From the NCBI GenBank assembly GCA_964624785.1, contig CAZUXR010000001.1, positions 213-64,212 on the forward strand: a stretch of 64,000 nt of DNA, in the 5' to 3' direction. Both the position numbers and the translations under genes were made by a program. The stretch comes from an uncultured Candidatus Saccharibacteria bacterium (GTDB lineage: Bacteria > Patescibacteriota > Saccharimonadia > Saccharimonadales > UBA10212). Shown piece by piece: positions 14,901 through 45,969 of the stretch (the stretch's first letter is position 1; the number at the start of each line of letters is the position of its first letter). The notes beneath the pieces were generated by a model. That model was not told where the DNA came from and searched no databases. It saw only the letters and a program-made list of their open reading frames with translations.

Positions 14901-15140
14901 TTTTTCGCGTTTTAGAATTTTGGTAACTTCGCCCACGTTAAGCGGCTGAAAGTAAACCCGGTCCGCCATATCGTGGTCGGTCTGCACGGTCGCAATGTTT
15001 GGATTAATCAGCACCGTTTCTATCCCATCCTCTTTTAATGCTTTAATGGCCTGCGATCCAGAATAATCAAACTCGCCAGCCTGGCCTATGCGCAGACCGC
15101 CAGAGCCGAAAATGATCGCCTTCCTTATTTTTGTGCTCAT
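11952..15140 (-). CDS. carB: carbamoyl-phosphate synthase large subunit
   Basis: 1062 aa with duplicated ATP-grasp halves and N-terminal GSGGLRIGQAGEFDYSG. Its start overlaps the carA stop (ATGA). Confidence 0.95.
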   Translation of the reverse strand: MSTKIRKAIIFGSGGLRIGQAGEFDYSGSQAIKALKEDGIETVLINPNIATVQTDHDMADRVYFQPLNVGEVTKILKREKPDAVLLSFGGQTALNLGLKLYEIGVFKKLGIKVLGTPVDTINITEDRELFKDALKQIDIKTARSIATYDLSGALAAAEKIGYPVMLRSGFSLGGLGSGRVNNADELRKKAAPAFKAAPQILIEEYLRGWKEIEYEVVRDRAGNTITVCNMENFDPMGIHTGESIVVAPSQTLTNREYHHLREVAIKTINHLGIIGECNIQYALNPENGDYRVIEVNARLSRSSALASKATGYPLAFVATKLSLGKLLPELKNAVTGQTSAFYEPALDYLALKMPRWDLTKLKSSDHQIGSEMKSVGEVMALGRSFPEVLQKAVRMLNIGADGLSTELHDFDDPLEEITRATDRRLFAIYEALKSGVSVDKIHDLSKIDKWFLGQVADIAHMESEVKKNNLNEDLLRAAKQVGFSDKALAFIKGKTEEEIRRRRLKLGIKPVIKQIDTLAGEFDAKTNYLYTTYHGQEDDIEPLDGKAVVVVGSGPYCIGSSVEFDWCAVNTAKTLQARGRKTIIVNSNPETVSTDFDRSDRLYFEELTLERMRDIADFERPQGIIVSVGGQIANNLALPLERAGYPILGTKAKDIDRAEDRQKFSAMLGEFNIDQPAWQEVSSLARAKVFAARVGYPVLIRPSYVLSGGAMNVVGNEQELARYLKEAAKLSPDHPVVISQFITHAKELEIDGVASNGQLIIYAISEHVENAGVHSGDATVVFPAQSLYLETVRRAKNITRQIVANLNITGPFNVQFIAKDNQLKVIECNVRASRSFPFISKISGHNFIQIAAEAILGIENNIRYQTLEYDYVGVKSPQFSYNRLKGADPVAGVEMASTGEVACFGSSLDEAFMRSWLATEQNLKGKNLFLALPDEYKFKFVEVTAKLIKKGWNVYTTPGTHDLFKEHGVQTTLLYKIKDRREPSVESAIADQKISLMISIPAEDGLDGNDGYIIRRVAIDNHLPLITNGELGRLLVKCLGDLDIDGSQPKAWQDYLLTNHKR

Positions 15141-16243
15141 TTTATTAGCTCGTAAAATTTAGTGAATAAATGATTAGTATCGGTGGGCCCGGGGGCGGCT
15201 TCCGGATGAAACTGCACTGCAAAGAATGGTTTGGATTTATGAATAATTCCTTCTACGGAATTATCATTTAAGTTGCGGAACCATACACGCCAGCCACTTG
15301 GTAGTTTTTTATCGTCAAGCGCGTAACTGTGATTCTGGCTGGTAATGTAGCATTTACCCGAGCCCGATTCCTGGCATGGCTGGTTGTGGCCACGGTGCCC
15401 AAACGGTAATTTATAAGTAGAAGCGCCGGCCGCCAATCCCATAATTTGGCTTCCCAGGCAAATCCCAAAAACCGGTTTGTTACGAGCTAAGACTTTCTTG
15501 ACGATCGCCACCGTGGCCCTATAATCCGTTGGATCGCCCGGGCCGTTAGACAAAAGTACGCCGTCGTATTCCTCGCCGCTAAAATCATAGTCCATCGGTA
15601 CATGCTTAACCTGCACGGGCAGCTTTAGCAGCTCGCGCAAAATGTTGGCTTTTGCTCCGCAGTCTACCAAAATAACCTTCTTTTTTTGGTTTGCATTGTA
15701 AATTTCTGGACGAGCGATCGTTACGAACTTGGGCTCAAAGCTGAATTTTTTTGGATCAACTTTGCCAGCACTAATCGCTCCAAGCATTGTGCCGCGAGTT
15801 CGCAAATGTTTGGTTAATGCCCTGGTATCTACTCCAAAAATGATCGGCACGCTCTGGCTTTTTAGCCATTCCAATAGCGAACTTTTGGCCTTCGCATGAG
15901 CGTAATGCACGGCCGCCTCACTCACAATAACGCCGCTAGCTTGGATTTTGCCAGACTCCCCGTCATCCGGATTAACCCCGTAATTTCCAATCAGCGGATA
16001 GGTAAAAGTTAGTATTTGCCCGGCGTAACTTGGATCGGTCAGTGACTCAACATAACCACTCATTCCGGTATTAAACACCACCTCGCCCTCAAACACACCG
16101 TCTTGCCACATCGGCTGCCGTCCACTAAATTCTCTACCATCGCCGAGAGTTAGAATAGCTTTTTTAAAAGAAAAATCGCCCCTTGCGGAGCGATTATTAT
16201 CCGATTTTGCTTTAGAATAAGTTGTTAGATTTTTACTCAACAC
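15137..16243 (-). CDS. carA: carbamoyl-phosphate synthase small (glutamine amidotransferase) subunit
   Basis: GATase triad context (GICLGSQIM, HRGHNQP, FHPEA). It is translationally coupled to carB. Confidence 0.9.
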   Translation of the reverse strand: MLSKNLTTYSKAKSDNNRSARGDFSFKKAILTLGDGREFSGRQPMWQDGVFEGEVVFNTGMSGYVESLTDPSYAGQILTFTYPLIGNYGVNPDDGESGKIQASGVIVSEAAVHYAHAKAKSSLLEWLKSQSVPIIFGVDTRALTKHLRTRGTMLGAISAGKVDPKKFSFEPKFVTIARPEIYNANQKKKVILVDCGAKANILRELLKLPVQVKHVPMDYDFSGEEYDGVLLSNGPGDPTDYRATVAIVKKVLARNKPVFGICLGSQIMGLAAGASTYKLPFGHRGHNQPCQESGSGKCYITSQNHSYALDDKKLPSGWRVWFRNLNDNSVEGIIHKSKPFFAVQFHPEAAPGPTDTNHLFTKFYELIK

Positions 16244-16370
16244 TTAAATATAGATTGTACTAGAATATCTCACGGCCCGCAAATTTTATGCACGTACTCA
16301 CTACATCGTGGACACTTGGCGACCCAACAGCTTTAGCCATACAAGAACCACCCCTAAATTGAAGTTTATT

Positions 16371-16414
16371 CAAATTATCATAAAATCGGCGATCGCCGAT
16401 TTTATGATAATTTG
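16371..16414. repeat. 44-bp perfect palindrome with GCGATCGC core
   Basis: CAAATTATCATAAAATCGGCGATCGCCGATTTTATGATAATTTG is its own reverse complement. It lies in the divergent carA / 16477 promoter region. Confidence 0.9.
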
Positions 16415-16476
16415 TGTTAGTTTTTACACCATTCATGCTTATAAGATTAAAAAATCGTATATAATCAAGGCTATTC

Positions 16477-17319
16477 ATGAATCAAAAAGTTTTAATGTCT
16501 GGGGCGGAATATTTTACGGATGAATTCGCCATTAATCCTTACTACGGCTCCGGTCCTGCGGTAGATACCGCCGCAGCTGTCGCCGAACACAAGTCAATCC
16601 AAGCCGCACTTAAAAAAGCCGGGGTAGAAATAGTTAAGGTTGACGCCCCGCCTGGCTGCCAGGACGGCGTCTACACTGCCAACTGGGGACTTTGCCGCGG
16701 CAACAAGTGCGTGTTGTCTTCCCTGCCAAACAAACGCTCGAGCGAGGAACCTTATGCAGAAAAAGTACTCCATGAACTCGGCAAAGAAGTCACTAAACCA
16801 CCTATGCGTTTTAGTGGCCAGGGCGACGCCTTGCCCTGCGGCGATTACTTATTCGCCGGATCTACCTACCGCACCGACCCAGCAATTCACAAATTTTTAG
16901 CCGACACTCTTGGTTTTAAAGTAATTTCCTTGCAAACCGTTCCTAAATTAGACGATTATGGCCAACCACTGATCAACTCCGTTACTGGCTGGCCGGACAG
17001 TTTTTTCTACGACATCGACCTGGCGCTGTCCGTACTCACACCCAACCTTATAGCATGGTGCCCAAGCGCGTTTACGCCGCAAAGTCAGGACAAAATCAGC
17101 GCCTTGCCGATGGGCAAAATCGAAGTCAGCCACAAAGAAGCCGTCGAAAATTTTGCCTGCAACCTACTTAGCACCGGTCAAACTGTGGTAATGAGCAACA
17201 GCGCGCCGCAGTTTAAAGCAGCCATAGAAGCCCGCGGCCTAAAAACCATTACGCCGCGCATCACAGAACTCGGCAAAGGCGGCGGCTACATCCGCTGCAC
17301 CACTCTTACCTTGGAATAA
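16477..17319 (+). CDS. guanidino-group modifying enzyme superfamily protein (amidinotransferase / DDAH / arginine deiminase-related fold)
   Basis: 280 aa ending ...GKGGGYIRCTTLTLE (C-terminal catalytic Cys motif of the superfamily). The N-terminal VLMSGAEYF...INPY is typical of this family. Confidence 0.6.
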   Translation: MNQKVLMSGAEYFTDEFAINPYYGSGPAVDTAAAVAEHKSIQAALKKAGVEIVKVDAPPGCQDGVYTANWGLCRGNKCVLSSLPNKRSSEEPYAEKVLHELGKEVTKPPMRFSGQGDALPCGDYLFAGSTYRTDPAIHKFLADTLGFKVISLQTVPKLDDYGQPLINSVTGWPDSFFYDIDLALSVLTPNLIAWCPSAFTPQSQDKISALPMGKIEVSHKEAVENFACNLLSTGQTVVMSNSAPQFKAAIEARGLKTITPRITELGKGGGYIRCTTLTLE

Positions 17320-17360
17320 ATTTTTGCGTTATTAGTTAATTAGTAGTATAATATCGTTAT

Positions 17361-17404
17361 CTTTTGCGGTTCGCCAGATTTGGCAGATCCAAAAGGAGTT
17401 TTTT
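17361..17404 (+). terminator. candidate intrinsic terminator after the 16477 gene
   Basis: Stem CTTTTG (17361-66) / CAAAAG (17390-95) with inner stem GCCA/TGGC, followed by a T6 run at 17399-17404. Confidence 0.4.
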
Positions 17405-17407
17405 AAC

Positions 17408-17710
17408 AAGGCAGGGTTTTTATATGCTCAAGGAACGCTTTTCCGGGTAGTGCTTCTTCTTTTTAGGGAACCAAACCTCAACCGACTGGAGCAAAAAAGC
17501 AATGAGCGATGATGACTACATCACAGAAGAGATCGATGCGATGCTCAGGAACTACGCAGCCTTGACGGGCAGGGTCAGGAGGTTCATCCGACGACTATTC
17601 CGAGCGCGCTAGGCGCTGCGCCTAACGCGCAGCGATACAATCAAAATCTCTCGCCAGGACGGTGCCGCCCCAAAAGCATCGTCCTGGCACAGCCACTAAA
17701 ACCCTGCCTT
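17408..17710. other. high-GC islet 2: 303-bp module closed by a 13-bp inverted repeat
   Basis: AAGGCAGGGTTTT (17408-17420) pairs with AAAACCCTGCCTT (17698-17710). The interior is GC-rich (nt 17581-17640 hand count 37/60) and has a GCCAGGACG...CGTCCTGGC hairpin. Confidence 0.7.
17502..17612 (+). CDS. possible 36-aa micro-ORF (acidic N-terminus, Arg-rich amphipathic C-terminus)
   Basis: MSDDDYITEEIDAMLRNYAALTGRVRRFIRRLFRAR. A GGAG lies 12 nt upstream. It is below the ORF-track cutoff and there is no homology evidence. Confidence 0.25.
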   Translation: MSDDDYITEEIDAMLRNYAALTGRVRRFIRRLFRAR

Positions 17711-17742
17711 AATTTTTTATAACACAACTAATTCACCGCATT

Positions 17743-17897
17743 GGACTTTCGCACTTTTCCATAGCAACAGACCATAGCTGACTGACCAACAAACTGCCTA
17801 TCTTTTCTCGGTGTAGCTATAGCTACTCCTCAAAAACCTAAACAGTTTTCGTCCAAACCAGCTACACCCTGTTATCTACAGAAAAGTGCGAAAGTCC
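17743..17897. repeat. 155-nt stem-closed element in the pyrB leader (17-bp perfect terminal inverted repeat)
   Basis: GGACTTTCGCACTTTTC (17743-17759) pairs with GAAAAGTGCGAAAGTCC (17881-17897). There is an inner stem GGTGTAGCT / AGCTACACC. Confidence 0.8.
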
Positions 17898-17968
17898 TAT
17901 AAAGCCCGCACGCAAACAATTTGAGTTTTACCAGCTAATAATAAATACTGGGACATAGAAAACAGGAG

Positions 17969-25286: not shown

Positions 25287-26216
25287 TCAAGTTTTCGACT
25301 TATCCTTAATCGAATATTTTTTAAAGAAACTAACTGGTCTTAGACCCTTTTTATGTTTTCGCAAGCCCTCTAGACCTAAATCCATTTCGATATTAATAAA
25401 TTCTACGCCGTTGCTTACTGCTACTTTAGCTAGTTGATTGAACGCGTAGTCGAAGATATTAGATAGCGAATAATCCACCTTCAAATGATTAGCGATATAG
25501 TAATTTTTATTAGCAGATTGATGATACAAAAGCACTGCCATTAACTTCCCGCCCACATAGACGCAGAGGTTCTTCATTCCTAGCATATCGTAATTATTTA
25601 ATGTTTTTTCTATAGCTAACTTTTCTTCGAACTCCGGGTCATTTTCTGTTTTGAATTTTTCGCTCCAGCCAGCTATGGCCGCAAAGACCTCTTGTCTTGT
25701 TCTCTCATCCGACAAATTAAGCTCTTTTGTTTGCAGTTCTCTACCACCCACTTCCCGTAAGAATCGACTAATCTGCTGCCTTAATCGAGCGTGGCTGGAG
25801 CCCTTCAATTCCGCAAGTTCATGACTATTTAATACATACTCGTTGTCATCTTGTTGCTCTTCGATTTCGAATTGGTCGGGGTATTTAATTGCACTTACCA
25901 CGAATTCTGCAATATGCATTAGTTTGGCTTGCTTGTTCTGAGCCTTTAGTTCTTTGAATATGATTTTTATAGATTCGTCGATCTTGTACGTGCCAACTAA
26001 TCCCAAGCCCGAATCCTGTATTTCTAAAGGCTGGTTATAGCTAATTACCATATTGCCATTCAGATCAGAAACAGTAAGTTTATCGTCTAAATTCCACCAT
26101 ATTTGTAGCGATGCAAAAGAGATATCGGACACTCCAGGGTAGCCTGCTACGAGTTGATCGTAGTTTTGTTTATCCTCCAGCGTAAGAGGTCTAAATCTTG
26201 GGAACTCCGGAAACAT
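25287..26216 (-). CDS. DUF2156 / MprF C-terminal (aminoacyl-phosphatidylglycerol synthase-like, GNAT-fold) domain protein
   Basis: FRPLTLEDKQNYDQL...SDISFASLQIWW is the typical N-terminus of stand-alone DUF2156 proteins. Its length of 309 aa fits the family. Confidence 0.6.
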   Translation of the reverse strand: MFPEFPRFRPLTLEDKQNYDQLVAGYPGVSDISFASLQIWWNLDDKLTVSDLNGNMVISYNQPLEIQDSGLGLVGTYKIDESIKIIFKELKAQNKQAKLMHIAEFVVSAIKYPDQFEIEEQQDDNEYVLNSHELAELKGSSHARLRQQISRFLREVGGRELQTKELNLSDERTRQEVFAAIAGWSEKFKTENDPEFEEKLAIEKTLNNYDMLGMKNLCVYVGGKLMAVLLYHQSANKNYYIANHLKVDYSLSNIFDYAFNQLAKVAVSNGVEFINIEMDLGLEGLRKHKKGLRPVSFFKKYSIKDKSKT

Positions 26217-35319: not shown

Positions 35320-35365
35320 CTTGATGAAAATTATACGCAATCACCTCCCCAAAGTACACTTAGCC

Positions 35366-35396
35366 TTCAAATAAAATAAGCGATAGGTTATTTTAT
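35366..35396. repeat. left copy of the 31-bp inverted repeat flanking the 35401 gene
   Basis: TTCAAATAAAATAAGCGATAGGTTATTTTAT is the exact reverse complement of 35982-36012. It is itself a hairpin (AAATAAAATAA / TTATTTTATT). Confidence 0.85.
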
Positions 35397-35400
35397 TAGT

Positions 35401-35985
35401 ATGGCTAAAAACGAAAGTACATCTGCGATTGTTGACGGAGTGTTAAGATTTACAGTGGTCGGTGGTTCAATCGCCGCCGGATTGTTCCTGCCTAACCTTT
35501 TAGTCACGCTGGATAAACCACTTAACAAATACTTTGCCCACCTTGATAAAAACGCTCGCGAAAGAGAAGTTCGAAGAGTGCTTAGCTATATGAAATCGCA
35601 CAAACTATTAACAGAAAATTACGAACACGGCATTGTGCTTACAGAAACGGGCAAAAAGCGCCTAGAACAGGCTGAGTTTGAATCACTTAAAATTAAACCG
35701 CTCAAAGAGTGGGATTATAAATGGCGTATCGTACTATATGATATCCCAGAAAATAAAAAAGTTGACAGACGAATACTGCAATTAAAGTTACAAAAGCTAG
35801 GGTTTAGACAGCTTCAACGCAGCGTACTGATTCACCCCTTCCCTTGTCGAGAAGTTATCGAATCCGTTTCCAACCACTACAAGCTAAGCGTGTATGTCAG
35901 CTATATAGAAGCAACTGGAATCGACAATCAAGCTGCCCTGATATCAAAATTCCAAAAAAGCTTACCAAACACATCCTTCAAATAA
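35401..35985 (+). CDS. membrane-anchored winged-helix / PaaX-like (Cas2-fold) putative regulator
   Basis: N-terminal TM, a wHTH-like segment (VLSYMKSHKLLTENYEHGIVLTETGKKRL), and WDYKWRIVLYDIPENKKVDRRILQLKLQKLGFRQLQRSVLIHPF typical of the PaaX-like middle domain. Confidence 0.5.
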   Translation: MAKNESTSAIVDGVLRFTVVGGSIAAGLFLPNLLVTLDKPLNKYFAHLDKNAREREVRRVLSYMKSHKLLTENYEHGIVLTETGKKRLEQAEFESLKIKPLKEWDYKWRIVLYDIPENKKVDRRILQLKLQKLGFRQLQRSVLIHPFPCREVIESVSNHYKLSVYVSYIEATGIDNQAALISKFQKSLPNTSFK

Positions 35986-36012
35986 AATAACCTATCGCTT
36001 ATTTTATTTGAA
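35982..36012. repeat. right copy of the 31-bp inverted repeat flanking the 35401 gene
   Basis: ATAAAATAACCTATCGCTTATTTTATTTGAA. It overlaps the stop codon of the 35401 gene. Confidence 0.85.
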
Positions 36013-36215: not shown

Positions 36216-36926
36216 ATGAATAAGAGCTCCGAAGAATCAGTAATACCCGTTCTTAAAATCATAGAAAAAGGCCGATCAGGGCACTTGGTCAGCCCCCAAG
36301 TTTTGCGACCAAAACGGAAGGAGGATGTTTCAAACCCCGAACTCGCAGCATCAATGGACCTTGCCGCCGCCATCGAGGCACTTAGAAGTGGTGATGTGAA
36401 AAAAGCAGAAGAAGACGCGAATAAAGCATACGGAGAGTATCATGCAGCATTTGCATTAAGGAGATCTACGACGGGTGACAGTGTTCCCAAATCTGGCGAC
36501 TTGTTGGGCTTAGCGGCTGCTAAAGATACTGTTTTAGCAACTTGGGAATTAGATCCAGAAGCGCACAAAGATCAAATAAAAAAGGCCCGCGACGAAGTGA
36601 GTGATTTCTTACTACTGGCACGTGAATTGCTTGGAAGTGAAGTAGACTCTGGAGATGTTGATCCCGAGTCTCCTGAATATGCTCAGAGACTAGCCGCTCT
36701 AGCGGTTTTGGAGGCCCAAACATATATAGCCGAGGGTAAGCCTGTGGAAGCATTTTGGACAATTGCACATACTACTCAAAATCTTAATGGCAGCACACCT
36801 GGGCACGTGGAAAATATCTTAAGCGAAGAAGCTACGATCTTAGCTATGATGGCAGAGCATGAAGGTACTACGCCTCCTCGATCAATTCGCTGCAATGGCG
36901 CACGAGTTCTAGCGCTAGCTGCTTAG
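36216..36926 (+). CDS. hypothetical alpha-helical protein
   Basis: 236-aa ORF. A possible TTGCGC-17-TACACT promoter lies about 70 nt upstream. No family recognised. Confidence 0.5.
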   Translation: MNKSSEESVIPVLKIIEKGRSGHLVSPQVLRPKRKEDVSNPELAASMDLAAAIEALRSGDVKKAEEDANKAYGEYHAAFALRRSTTGDSVPKSGDLLGLAAAKDTVLATWELDPEAHKDQIKKARDEVSDFLLLARELLGSEVDSGDVDPESPEYAQRLAALAVLEAQTYIAEGKPVEAFWTIAHTTQNLNGSTPGHVENILSEEATILAMMAEHEGTTPPRSIRCNGARVLALAA

Positions 36927-45707: not shown

Positions 45708-45869
45708 TTAGCCTCTGTTTTCTCCTACCCTGTCTCATAATTACTCCTGATATGCTACCACGGAAGTAGCGATGAGCCAATACCTTGAAGCCAAGACTCC
45801 TTGGTTGGTGGCTGAAAGGCCTGAAATTCATAATGCAGAGTTGAGAATGCGAAACTTCCGTCACCAACA

Positions 45870-45907
45870 AATCAAATAAAATAAGCGATCGCTTATTTTA
45901 TTTGATT
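45870..45907. repeat. 38-bp perfect palindrome with GCGATCGC core
   Basis: AATCAAATAAAATAAGCGATCGCTTATTTTATTTGATT lies between the S41 peptidase stop and the pyrG start. Confidence 0.9.
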
Positions 45908-45969
45908 CGTTTAATAGTTCAGGGTTCAGAGTTTTATGTTCTTGAACTTTAGCTTCTATAAACTCTCGG

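Follow-up and report, generated by a model that had tools for sequence, protein, structure and literature searches.

PaaX of E. coli binds to a 39-bp dyad with the sequence TGATTC-N27-GAATCA and autorepresses the Px promoter by steric hindrance, blocking RNA polymerase (review, PMC9493321). The PaaX proteins of E. coli and Pseudomonas combine a winged-helix N-terminus, a Cas2-like central dimerisation domain (PaaX_M) and a C-terminal domain that senses phenylacetyl-CoA. In the REP/RAYT systems, a species-specific palindrome is found around a single-copy, vertically inherited gene and elsewhere in intergenic regions, with hundreds of near-identical copies, and bidirectional intrinsic terminators can take the form of perfect palindromes composed of an A-tract, a short GC-rich stem and a T-tract. 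The genomes of Saccharibacteria and other Patescibacteria are tiny, and we know of almost no transcription factors or operators that have been defined experimentally in these organisms.

The locus described here, from an uncultured Saccharibacterium, resembles the PaaX system in several respects. It encodes a short protein, designated mini-PaaX, that shares the PaaX_M domain and probably the winged-helix N-terminus. Its candidate operators are long dyads with widely spaced symmetric contacts (palindromes of 38-46 bp, compared with 39 bp for PaaX), and one of them lies on the putative promoter of the regulator gene itself, where mini-PaaX would be expected to bind. In contrast to PaaX, mini-PaaX has only 194 residues, carries an extra N-terminal hydrophobic helix and lacks the phenylacetyl-CoA-sensing domain; furthermore, its gene has no paa genes nearby and possesses a second copy of the site at its 3' end, the operator sequence is unrelated, and the host belongs to the Saccharibacteria. 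In the searchable literature we found no description of a truncated PaaX-type regulator with palindromic candidate operators bracketing its own gene in Saccharibacteria.

The window, i.e. the whole stretch of 64,000 nucleotides that was analysed, contains a 44-bp palindrome (S1, Table 1) in the 233-bp spacer between carA and a divergently transcribed gene for a DDAH/amidinotransferase-like protein. The first-pass annotation had described S1 as perfectly self-complementary, and this was confirmed, as the sequence equals its own reverse complement. S1 is the longest perfect palindrome within the window, compared with maxima of 14-20 bp in 20 mononucleotide shuffles; the palindrome is real and highly non-random. 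The window was searched for ATAAAAT-N(0-30)-ATTTTAT, and four matches were obtained, all with a 12-nt centre, while 0.06 matches were expected for ATAAAAT-N12-ATTTTAT. The same design had been noticed earlier at carA and pyrG, and the palindromes at these two genes (S1 and S4) indeed represent one motif class, with a perfect 38-mer within S4. Both of these copies are real, but the window holds four, and the two sites around ORF 35401-35985 (S2 and S3) had been missed.

Table 1. Sites and genes of the window, and additional sites in two related genomes (contig coordinates for L205 and L207).
Feature	Position	Strand	Sequence	Matrix score (bits)	Remarks
S1, palindrome	16371-16414	strand-neutral	CAAATTATCATAAAATCGGCGATCGCCGATTTTATGATAATTTG	25.7	44 bp, perfect
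S1, 26-bp core	16380-16405		ATAAAAT-CGGCGATCGCCG-ATTTTAT		12-nt centre CGGCGATCGCCG
S2, full site	35366-35397	plus	TTCAAATAAAATAAGCGATAGGTTATTTTATT	38.6	directly upstream of mini-PaaX gene
S2, core	35371-35396				12-nt centre AAGCGATAGGTT
S3, full site	35977-36012	strand-neutral	TTCAAATAAAATAACCTATCGCTTATTTTATTTGAA	38.8	overlaps mini-PaaX stop codon
S3, core	35982-36007				12-nt centre AACCTATCGCTT
S4, palindrome	45866-45911	strand-neutral		37.1	46 bp, one mismatch; perfect 38-mer at 45870-45907
S4, core	45876-45901				12-nt centre AAGCGATCGCTT
carA	15137-16243	minus			start GTG at 16243
Likely -10 box of carA	16254-16259	minus	TACAAT		10 nt before GTG 16243; read by eye
DDAH/amidinotransferase-like gene	16477-17319	plus			start ATG at 16477
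Likely -10 box of DDAH-like gene	16460-16465	plus	TATAAT		11 nt before ATG 16477
mini-PaaX gene	35401-35985	plus			194 aa; between S2 and S3
Extra site in L205	12621-12650				before histidine-kinase-like / response-regulator / recO operon
Extra site in L207	11576-11601				after xerC/D-like gene

Gene calling yielded 59 genes. Among the 41 spacers with a length of 40 bp or more, 33 lie between tandem genes, 5 between divergent and 3 between convergent ones. Two of the divergent and two of the tandem spacers carry the motif, and none of the convergent spacers does. S2 lies within a 60-bp divergent spacer shared with glyS and ends 3 nt before the ATG at 35401. By eye, a promoter-like TTCAAA-N17-TATTTT was recognised inside S2, ending 6 nt before this ATG, which suggests that the mini-PaaX gene may be transcribed from the embedded promoter as a leaderless transcript. 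At the other end of the gene, the left arm of S3 codes for the C-terminal Phe-Lys-stop of mini-PaaX. S2 is identical to the first 32 nt of reverse-complemented S3, and the outer half-sites of S2 and S3 recur unchanged as both halves of S4 (CAAATAAAATAAGCGAT). S4 itself is located 59 nt past the stop codon of a ctpA-like gene (S41 peptidase) and about 180 nt before the start of pyrG, both genes being encoded on the minus strand.

The mini-PaaX protein has a hydrophobic helix at its N-terminus, a predicted winged helix-turn-helix, and a PaaX_M domain of the Cas2-like type. The latter (Pfam PF20803) was detected at residues 102-175 with 65.3 bits (gathering score 24, E = 5.3e-18), whereas the N-terminal domain had no Pfam match. 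PaaX_C is absent, as the protein stops at residue 194 without a C-terminal ligand domain, and the NCBIfam PaaX equivalog model TIGR02277 gave 34 bits compared with a cut-off of 264.55. An AlphaFold2 model was generated from an alignment of 21 sequences (mean pLDDT 78). In its N-terminal part it contains helices at residues 39-46, 50-66 and 82-94 and short strands at 70-80, with pLDDT values of 59-79. A Foldseek search with this model retrieved E. coli PaaX (8a39) as the best PDB match (E = 3.1e-5, TM 0.44, 200 columns), followed by Rv0674 and then by Cas2 proteins, so that the fold is PaaX-like. PaaX was found by the fold search only; a PDB sequence search returned nothing significant. NCBIfam Cas2 models produced sub-threshold matches only, PADLOC reported weak matches to Cas2 domains and no defence system, and domain searches of mini-PaaX detected no HUH/Y1 or other transposase or recombinase domain.

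Homologues of mini-PaaX are numerous. A first search returned 21 of them at 45-58% identity, a profile search at least 259 clusters at 90% identity, and a library clustered at 50% identity contained 288 family representatives at E <= 1e-30. Among the 120 clusters listed, nearly all members have about 190 residues and all carry PF20803; few of these clusters come with a named source, mostly Saccharimonadales/Saccharibacteria. In the window, the neighbours of the gene are glyS, recO and an ORF of no assigned family. The position between glyS and recO is shared by the window, L001, L003, L155 and L205, and this synteny across deep divergence argues for vertical inheritance of mini-PaaX. Literature searches returned no paper joining PaaX with Cas2 or with Saccharibacteria, and nothing relevant on leaderless promoters in Saccharibacteria.

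The contigs of eight mini-PaaX homologues, together with two loci from other scans, were then compared with the window. In L001, L003, L005, L007, L155, L205, L206 and L207, whose mini-PaaX proteins are 45-58% identical to that of the window, a related palindrome ends 0-3 nt before the mini-PaaX start codon. These upstream palindromes consist of AT arms and a GC core, and their inner arm holds the sequence TAnnnT 6-9 nt before the start, a placement that suggests a leaderless transcript in the relatives as well. A second palindrome at or just after the mini-PaaX stop codon was found in L001, L003, L005, L007, L110, L155, L205 and L207; L206 counts for the upstream palindrome only, as its sequence ends at the stop codon. 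The linkage of the motif to the mini-PaaX gene family is conserved.

To obtain a half-site consensus, 38 half-sites were aligned on the dyad. Conserved positions are A at -14 (32/38), A at -13 (33/38), T at -12 (35/38), A at -11 (35/38), A at -9 (28/38), T at -7 (28/38), G at -4 (28/38), C at -3 (36/38), G or T at -2 (25/38 and 11/38, respectively) and A at -1 (32/38). The S1 half-site matches 10 of 12 conserved positions. Identity of the sites between genomes was 20.3/36, compared with 10.9 (maximum 11.6) in shuffles that keep symmetry and composition. Upstream and downstream copies of the same genome are identical at 24-34 of 36 positions, while the mean between genomes is 21.8 and the maximum 28. 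Subsequently, a log-odds matrix was built exclusively from 15 sites of other genomes and scanned as a dyad across the window. S3, S2, S4 and S1, in this order, were the top four positions (Table 1); the fifth-best position reached 16.5 bits, and ten shuffled windows peaked at 5.6-16.5 bits. As the fourth-ranking site of a matrix derived from other genomes, S1 is a true but weaker member of a motif that is defined independently of the window.

Since the motif brackets the mini-PaaX gene family, and since a matrix from other genomes recovers S1-S4, we consider it most likely, though by a cautious judgement, that S1 is a cognate site (operator) of the protein encoded by ORF 35401. The operator for a dimeric regulator that the first-pass annotation had proposed accordingly is the explanation that best fits the sequences, with the motif conserved at the putative regulator's own promoter in nine genomes. 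Its mention of the 35401 product as a candidate regulator also proved well chosen: this product is PaaX-like and probably a winged-helix protein, and its gene is bracketed by the motif here and by related forms of it in eight further genomes. Binding by mini-PaaX is what we infer, as are the direction of any regulation and any effect on carA or pyrG. A homodimer of mini-PaaX would bind S1 as double-stranded DNA; the site recognised would have dyad symmetry, a length of about 36-44 bp and half-sites that follow the consensus AATAAAwTAnGCGA. At S2, which covers the -35 and -10 elements of the putative leaderless-type promoter, binding would occlude RNA polymerase and lead to autorepression, as for E. 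coli PaaX at Px. S3 at the stop codon might be used for looping, as the second operator, or might form a roadblock; a weak activity as a hairpin terminator is also conceivable. S1 and S4 may represent further copies that arose in this lineage, through which mini-PaaX might influence the adjacent pyrimidine genes from a position upstream of them and without overlap. Against an operator function of S1 speaks that it is the weakest of the four sites. With this assignment, a large uncharacterised family of short PaaX-like proteins is linked to a specific conserved DNA motif at its own promoter, which provides a candidate regulator-operator pair and a consensus for regulon prediction in these organisms.

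Alternatively, the palindromes might act at the RNA level as bidirectional intrinsic terminators or as stabilisers of transcript ends (A-tract, short GC stem, GAUC loop, U-tract), in which case the association with mini-PaaX would reflect a promoter-proximal insulator plus the gene's own terminator. We regard this as unlikely, even though several properties of the sites fit. S1 folds as RNA at -27 kcal/mol (z = -8 to -10) and S4 at -20 to -24.5 kcal/mol, S1 matches the terminator-scan pattern with 6 GC pairs, and S3 and S4 lie just 3' of genes. Between S1 and S4, 8 of 22 half-site positions are different, but both palindromes are perfectly or near-perfectly symmetric, so that pairing of the arms is kept by variation that looks compensatory. 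Moreover, palindromes between convergent genes in L011, L064, L090 and L093 have a similar A-tract/GC-core/T-tract design and look like plain bidirectional terminators. In the window, however, S1 and S2 are each flanked by divergent gene starts, with nothing to be terminated, and the motif is missing from all three convergent gene ends; a terminator position of S1 had been doubted before for the former reason, and rightly so. Two of these three convergent spacers contain unrelated, ordinary GC-rich hairpins, and in the third the scan called none. The scan did not call S2, S3 or S4 either. The stems are mostly A-U; the GC stem is very short in S4 and disrupted in S2 and S3, whose cores are asymmetric. 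Searches against Rfam at gathering thresholds detected no RNA family anywhere in the 64-kb window. Selection for a hairpin would leave unexplained why the primary sequence is conserved across genomes and why a matrix from other genomes recovers S1-S4, and a terminator would not be expected to end 0-3 nt before a start codon with a -10-like hexamer inside, as the upstream copy does in nine genomes. Both functions need not exclude each other, as it is plausible that a site has a dual role, serving as an operator in the DNA and forming a hairpin where it lies at the 3' end of the gene. The symmetry of the diverged S1 and S4 is not demanded by a dimeric protein and points to additional selection for a hairpin or to an origin that generates palindromes.

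A further alternative would be a REP/RAYT-like or other mobile palindrome, selfish or domesticated, with S1 and S4 as dispersed copies, the master copies flanking the protein gene and the pyrimidine neighbours being incidental. The arrangement in the window, where the mini-PaaX gene lies between two mutually inverted palindromes, is reminiscent of REPs around RAYT genes, and S1 and S4, being perfectly symmetric, look as if they had been generated recently. Their spacers are also enlarged: the ctpA-pyrG spacer measures 262 bp in the window and about 80-155 bp in relatives, and the carA spacer 233 bp compared with 78-99 bp. The DBS2-1.bin101 MAG (labelled only 'bacterium') and a Limisphaerales MAG contain another palindrome of this design, which occurs there in at least 16 near-identical copies and in every kind of intergenic context, and one copy of it precedes a full-length PaaX-family gene in L065. 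A mobile origin is nevertheless improbable in our view. Copy number is low, with two extra sites in 64 kb here and none or one per 8-32 kb scanned around the gene in the eight relatives, only two of which have a copy away from the mini-PaaX flanks (L205 and L207, Table 1). In total this amounts to about 4 extra copies in the roughly 200 kb surveyed, a density that is regulon-like and not REP-like. A scan of genome contigs with the pattern ATAAAATNNSSNATNSSNNATTTTAT was too permissive, the matches listed being unrelated palindromes in many phyla. Unlike the near-identical copies of a REP, S1 and S4 share only 24 of 36 positions and have neither common flanks nor target duplications. Mini-PaaX lacks the HUH/Y1 domain of such systems as well as other transposase or recombinase domains, its upstream site doubles as the likely promoter of the gene, and its glyS-recO synteny indicates vertical inheritance. 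Nor do the flanking copies keep the same orientation to each other, as they are direct in L003 and L205 and inverted in the window.

A related and similarly doubtful view is that the mini-PaaX gene and its two bracketing palindromes form a self-contained module, widespread in Saccharibacteria, whose palindromes multiply and are recruited to new loci. In that case the targets of a winged-helix protein with a Cas2 fold would be long perfect palindromes, which might be recognised in the form of extruded hairpins or cruciforms. If true, the module would represent a counterpart of REP/RAYT built on PaaX, or else a novel type of insulator or boundary element. S1 and S4 would then have been recruited recently, changing how pyrimidine genes are controlled in an organism for which very few regulators are known.

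Far less probable still are site-specific recombination sites in the manner of lox or dif, with arms of 12-14 bp and an 8-bp spacer, where the 611-bp gene cassette would have integrated or been inverted, leaving S2 and S3 as hybrids of the attL/attR type, and S1 and S4 would have stayed unoccupied. S2 (AAGCGAT/AGGTT) and S3 (AACCTAT/CGCTT) are the exact hybrids that a crossover of the S4-type AAGCGAT/CGCTT with AACCTAT/AGGTT would produce, a xerC/D-like tyrosine recombinase gene adjoins the mini-PaaX gene in L005 and L207, with the sites of L207 bracketing both genes, and the recO-glyS junction varies among relatives. On the other hand, no recombinase is encoded near the mini-PaaX gene in the window, L001, L003, L155 or L205, most genomes have symmetric cores or direct copies, the geometry is not conserved between genomes, and the upstream copy is consistently part of the likely promoter of a gene whose position is kept across deep divergence. 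The attL/attR interpretation of S2 and S3 was therefore set aside on the grounds of the conserved glyS-recO position, the varying orientation of the copies and the lack of a nearby recombinase in most genomes.

HIP1 of cyanobacteria, which is defined by extreme genome-wide over-representation, had been brought up for the octamer GCGATCGC at the centre of S1 and S4, and was rejected on counts, as the octamer occurs 3 times in the 64-kb window (1.12 expected; 9 of 100 shuffles reach 3) and is thus not over-represented. In contrast to HIP1, the octamer here appears to be the centre of a longer operator consensus (GCGA/TCGC), and at the dyad centre in other mini-PaaX genomes it is replaced by GCGATAGC, GCTATAGC, CCGATCGG or CGGCCG; on these sequences, the resemblance is coincidental.

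Returning to mini-PaaX as the probable ligand of S1, the position of this site relative to the adjacent genes was considered. The centre of S1 lies about 150 nt from the start codon of carA and about 84 nt from that of the DDAH-like gene. With promoters assigned by eye, S1 is found about 110 nt upstream of the likely -10 box of carA, while that of the DDAH-like gene is located 46 nt downstream of the right edge of S1. Neither likely promoter is overlapped by S1, which makes a role as a simple steric repressor unlikely at this spacer. An arrangement of TATAAT-N10/11-start is found before glyS as well as before the DDAH-like gene. Contig L202, the only one retrieved from the same organism, terminates inside S1.

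The occurrence of the motif at carA and pyrG had led to the proposal of a pyrimidine/arginine regulon. Both non-self sites of the window (2/2) do adjoin pyrimidine genes, which is suggestive, with a chance of about 0.005-0.01 given 41 spacers in what is a post hoc comparison. Orthologous promoters did not bear out a conserved regulon. No motif was found upstream of carA orthologues in the two loci available (68-69% identity), which have short, palindrome-free spacers and, differing from the window, pyrC as the divergent neighbour. Likewise, 78 related loci had upstream sequence long enough for a scan, in none of them was an S4-like palindrome found ahead of pyrG, and the extra sites of the relatives adjoin unrelated genes. 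The idea of a pyrimidine regulon thus appears weak. As the motif is absent from orthologous pyrG and carA loci and S1 lies off the promoters, any control of carA or pyrG would be specific to this lineage, and the apparent pyrimidine operator would be a lineage-specific feature and not a conserved regulon signal. Of 80 related loci retrieved, about 75 keep the ctpA-pyrG gene order itself. Absent from the window, another conserved palindrome, AATACTTAAC-NN-GTTAAGTATT, is present upstream of pyrG in at least 5 of the 78 loci, with a variant in a sixth.

Upstream of glyS, carA and the DDAH-like gene, a TATAAT or TACAAT box precedes the start codon by exactly 10-11 nt in each of the three. This arrangement points to near-leaderless transcripts being common in the genome of the window. 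Unlike these genes, pyrB and pyrG are preceded by Shine-Dalgarno-like sequences. The carA gene, which diverges from the DDAH-like gene, starts with an N-terminal extension of 30 codons that contains a terminator-like hairpin. As homologous CarA proteins likewise comprise ~367 amino acids, this extension is probably coding, and the hairpin within it may have an attenuator-like role. A gap without genes separates the DDAH-like gene from pyrB and could be a long regulatory leader of pyrB-pyrC; it includes a GC-rich stem and an imperfect palindrome, and no Rfam family was matched in this gap.

Features in the window and in compared loci
Feature	Position	Strand	Details
TATAAT or TACAAT box of carA	16254-16259	minus	
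TATAAT or TACAAT box of DDAH-like gene	16460-16465	plus	
TATAAT or TACAAT box of glyS	35330-35335	minus	
Terminator-like hairpin	16174-16195	minus	AATCGCTCCGCAAGGGGCGATT then TTTCTTTTAA
Gene-free gap	17320-17968		649 bp
GC-rich stem	17653-17688		13 bp
Imperfect palindrome	17791-17848		58 bp
Fifth-best operator-matrix match	25475-25518		TTCAAATGATTAGCGATA|TAGTAATTTTTATTAG, 16.5 bits
ORF downstream of S3	36216-36926		236 aa
GCGACAATAAAATACGCGATCGCGTATTTTATTGTCGC copies, bacterium DBS2-1.bin101	L009, L027, L030, L032, L050, L052, L057, L068, L072, L075, L084, L099, L103		
GCGACAATAAAATACGCGATCGCGTATTTTATTGTCGC copies, Limisphaerales	L062, L071		
Perfect palindrome of GCGACAATAAAATACGCGATCGCGTATTTTATTGTCGC type, Puniceicoccaceae	L065 2459-2520		62 bp
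AATACTTAAC-NN-GTTAAGTATT 5' of pyrG	L131, L150, L154, L158, L159, L162		~90-155 nt upstream of pyrG

Palindromes of the same design as those of the window were obtained from other MAGs, where GCGACAATAAAATACGCGATCGCGTATTTTATTGTCGC is present in at least 16 near-identical copies with asymmetric flanks that are conserved as well. These copies occupy convergent, divergent and tandem spacers alike and are a REP/MITE-like family. In L065, a perfect palindrome of this type also precedes a full-length PaaX-family gene by ~25 nt. In the window itself, the fifth-best match to the operator matrix, which was built from sites of other genomes only, is probably due to chance, since it is located inside a coding region and scores level with the best matches in shuffled sequences. 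The 44-bp palindrome S1 in the carA/DDAH-like spacer probably breaks short-read assemblies: a contig of the same organism (L202, Logan SRR9179560), 100% identical to the window over 2336 bp, terminates inside S1, with its position 1 corresponding to window position 16400. Such breaks may conceal palindromic sites in MAGs.

Several related Saccharibacteria share a distinct conserved palindrome, AATACTTAAC-NN-GTTAAGTATT, which recurs 5' of pyrG and also at other loci; it is present in L110, L135, L146, L161 and L207 too. It was not detected in the window (0 matches with up to 3 mismatches allowed). A different regulator may use this palindrome as its operator, and S4, the palindrome of the ctpA-pyrG spacer, may have taken its place in the lineage of the window.

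The recO-glyS junction is 0 to 1311 bp long in the relatives compared (L001, L003, L127-L200) and contains the mini-PaaX gene in the window, L001, L003, L155 and L205, with other or no content elsewhere. With both size and content varying, this junction is a hotspot of variable small genes. Directly downstream of S3, the palindrome at the mini-PaaX stop codon, an ORF was found that had no match in Pfam, NCBIfam or PADLOC and no tblastn homologue among the related loci compared. This ORF is an orphan, and its insertion separates the mini-PaaX gene from recO. In one sub-lineage (L207 9970-11601; L005 7815-8459), the mini-PaaX gene is instead flanked by ndk on one side and by a xerC/D-like tyrosine recombinase gene on the other, and in L207 both the mini-PaaX and the xerC/D-like gene are bracketed by three sites. 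At the middle one the promoter-like arrangement recurs: TAGAAT stands 6 nt ahead of an ATG, and a stop codon comes immediately after this ATG. On a related metagenome contig (L003 10625-10690), ~8 tandem GGGCGTTT units were observed just 3' of the palindrome at the 3' end of the mini-PaaX gene.
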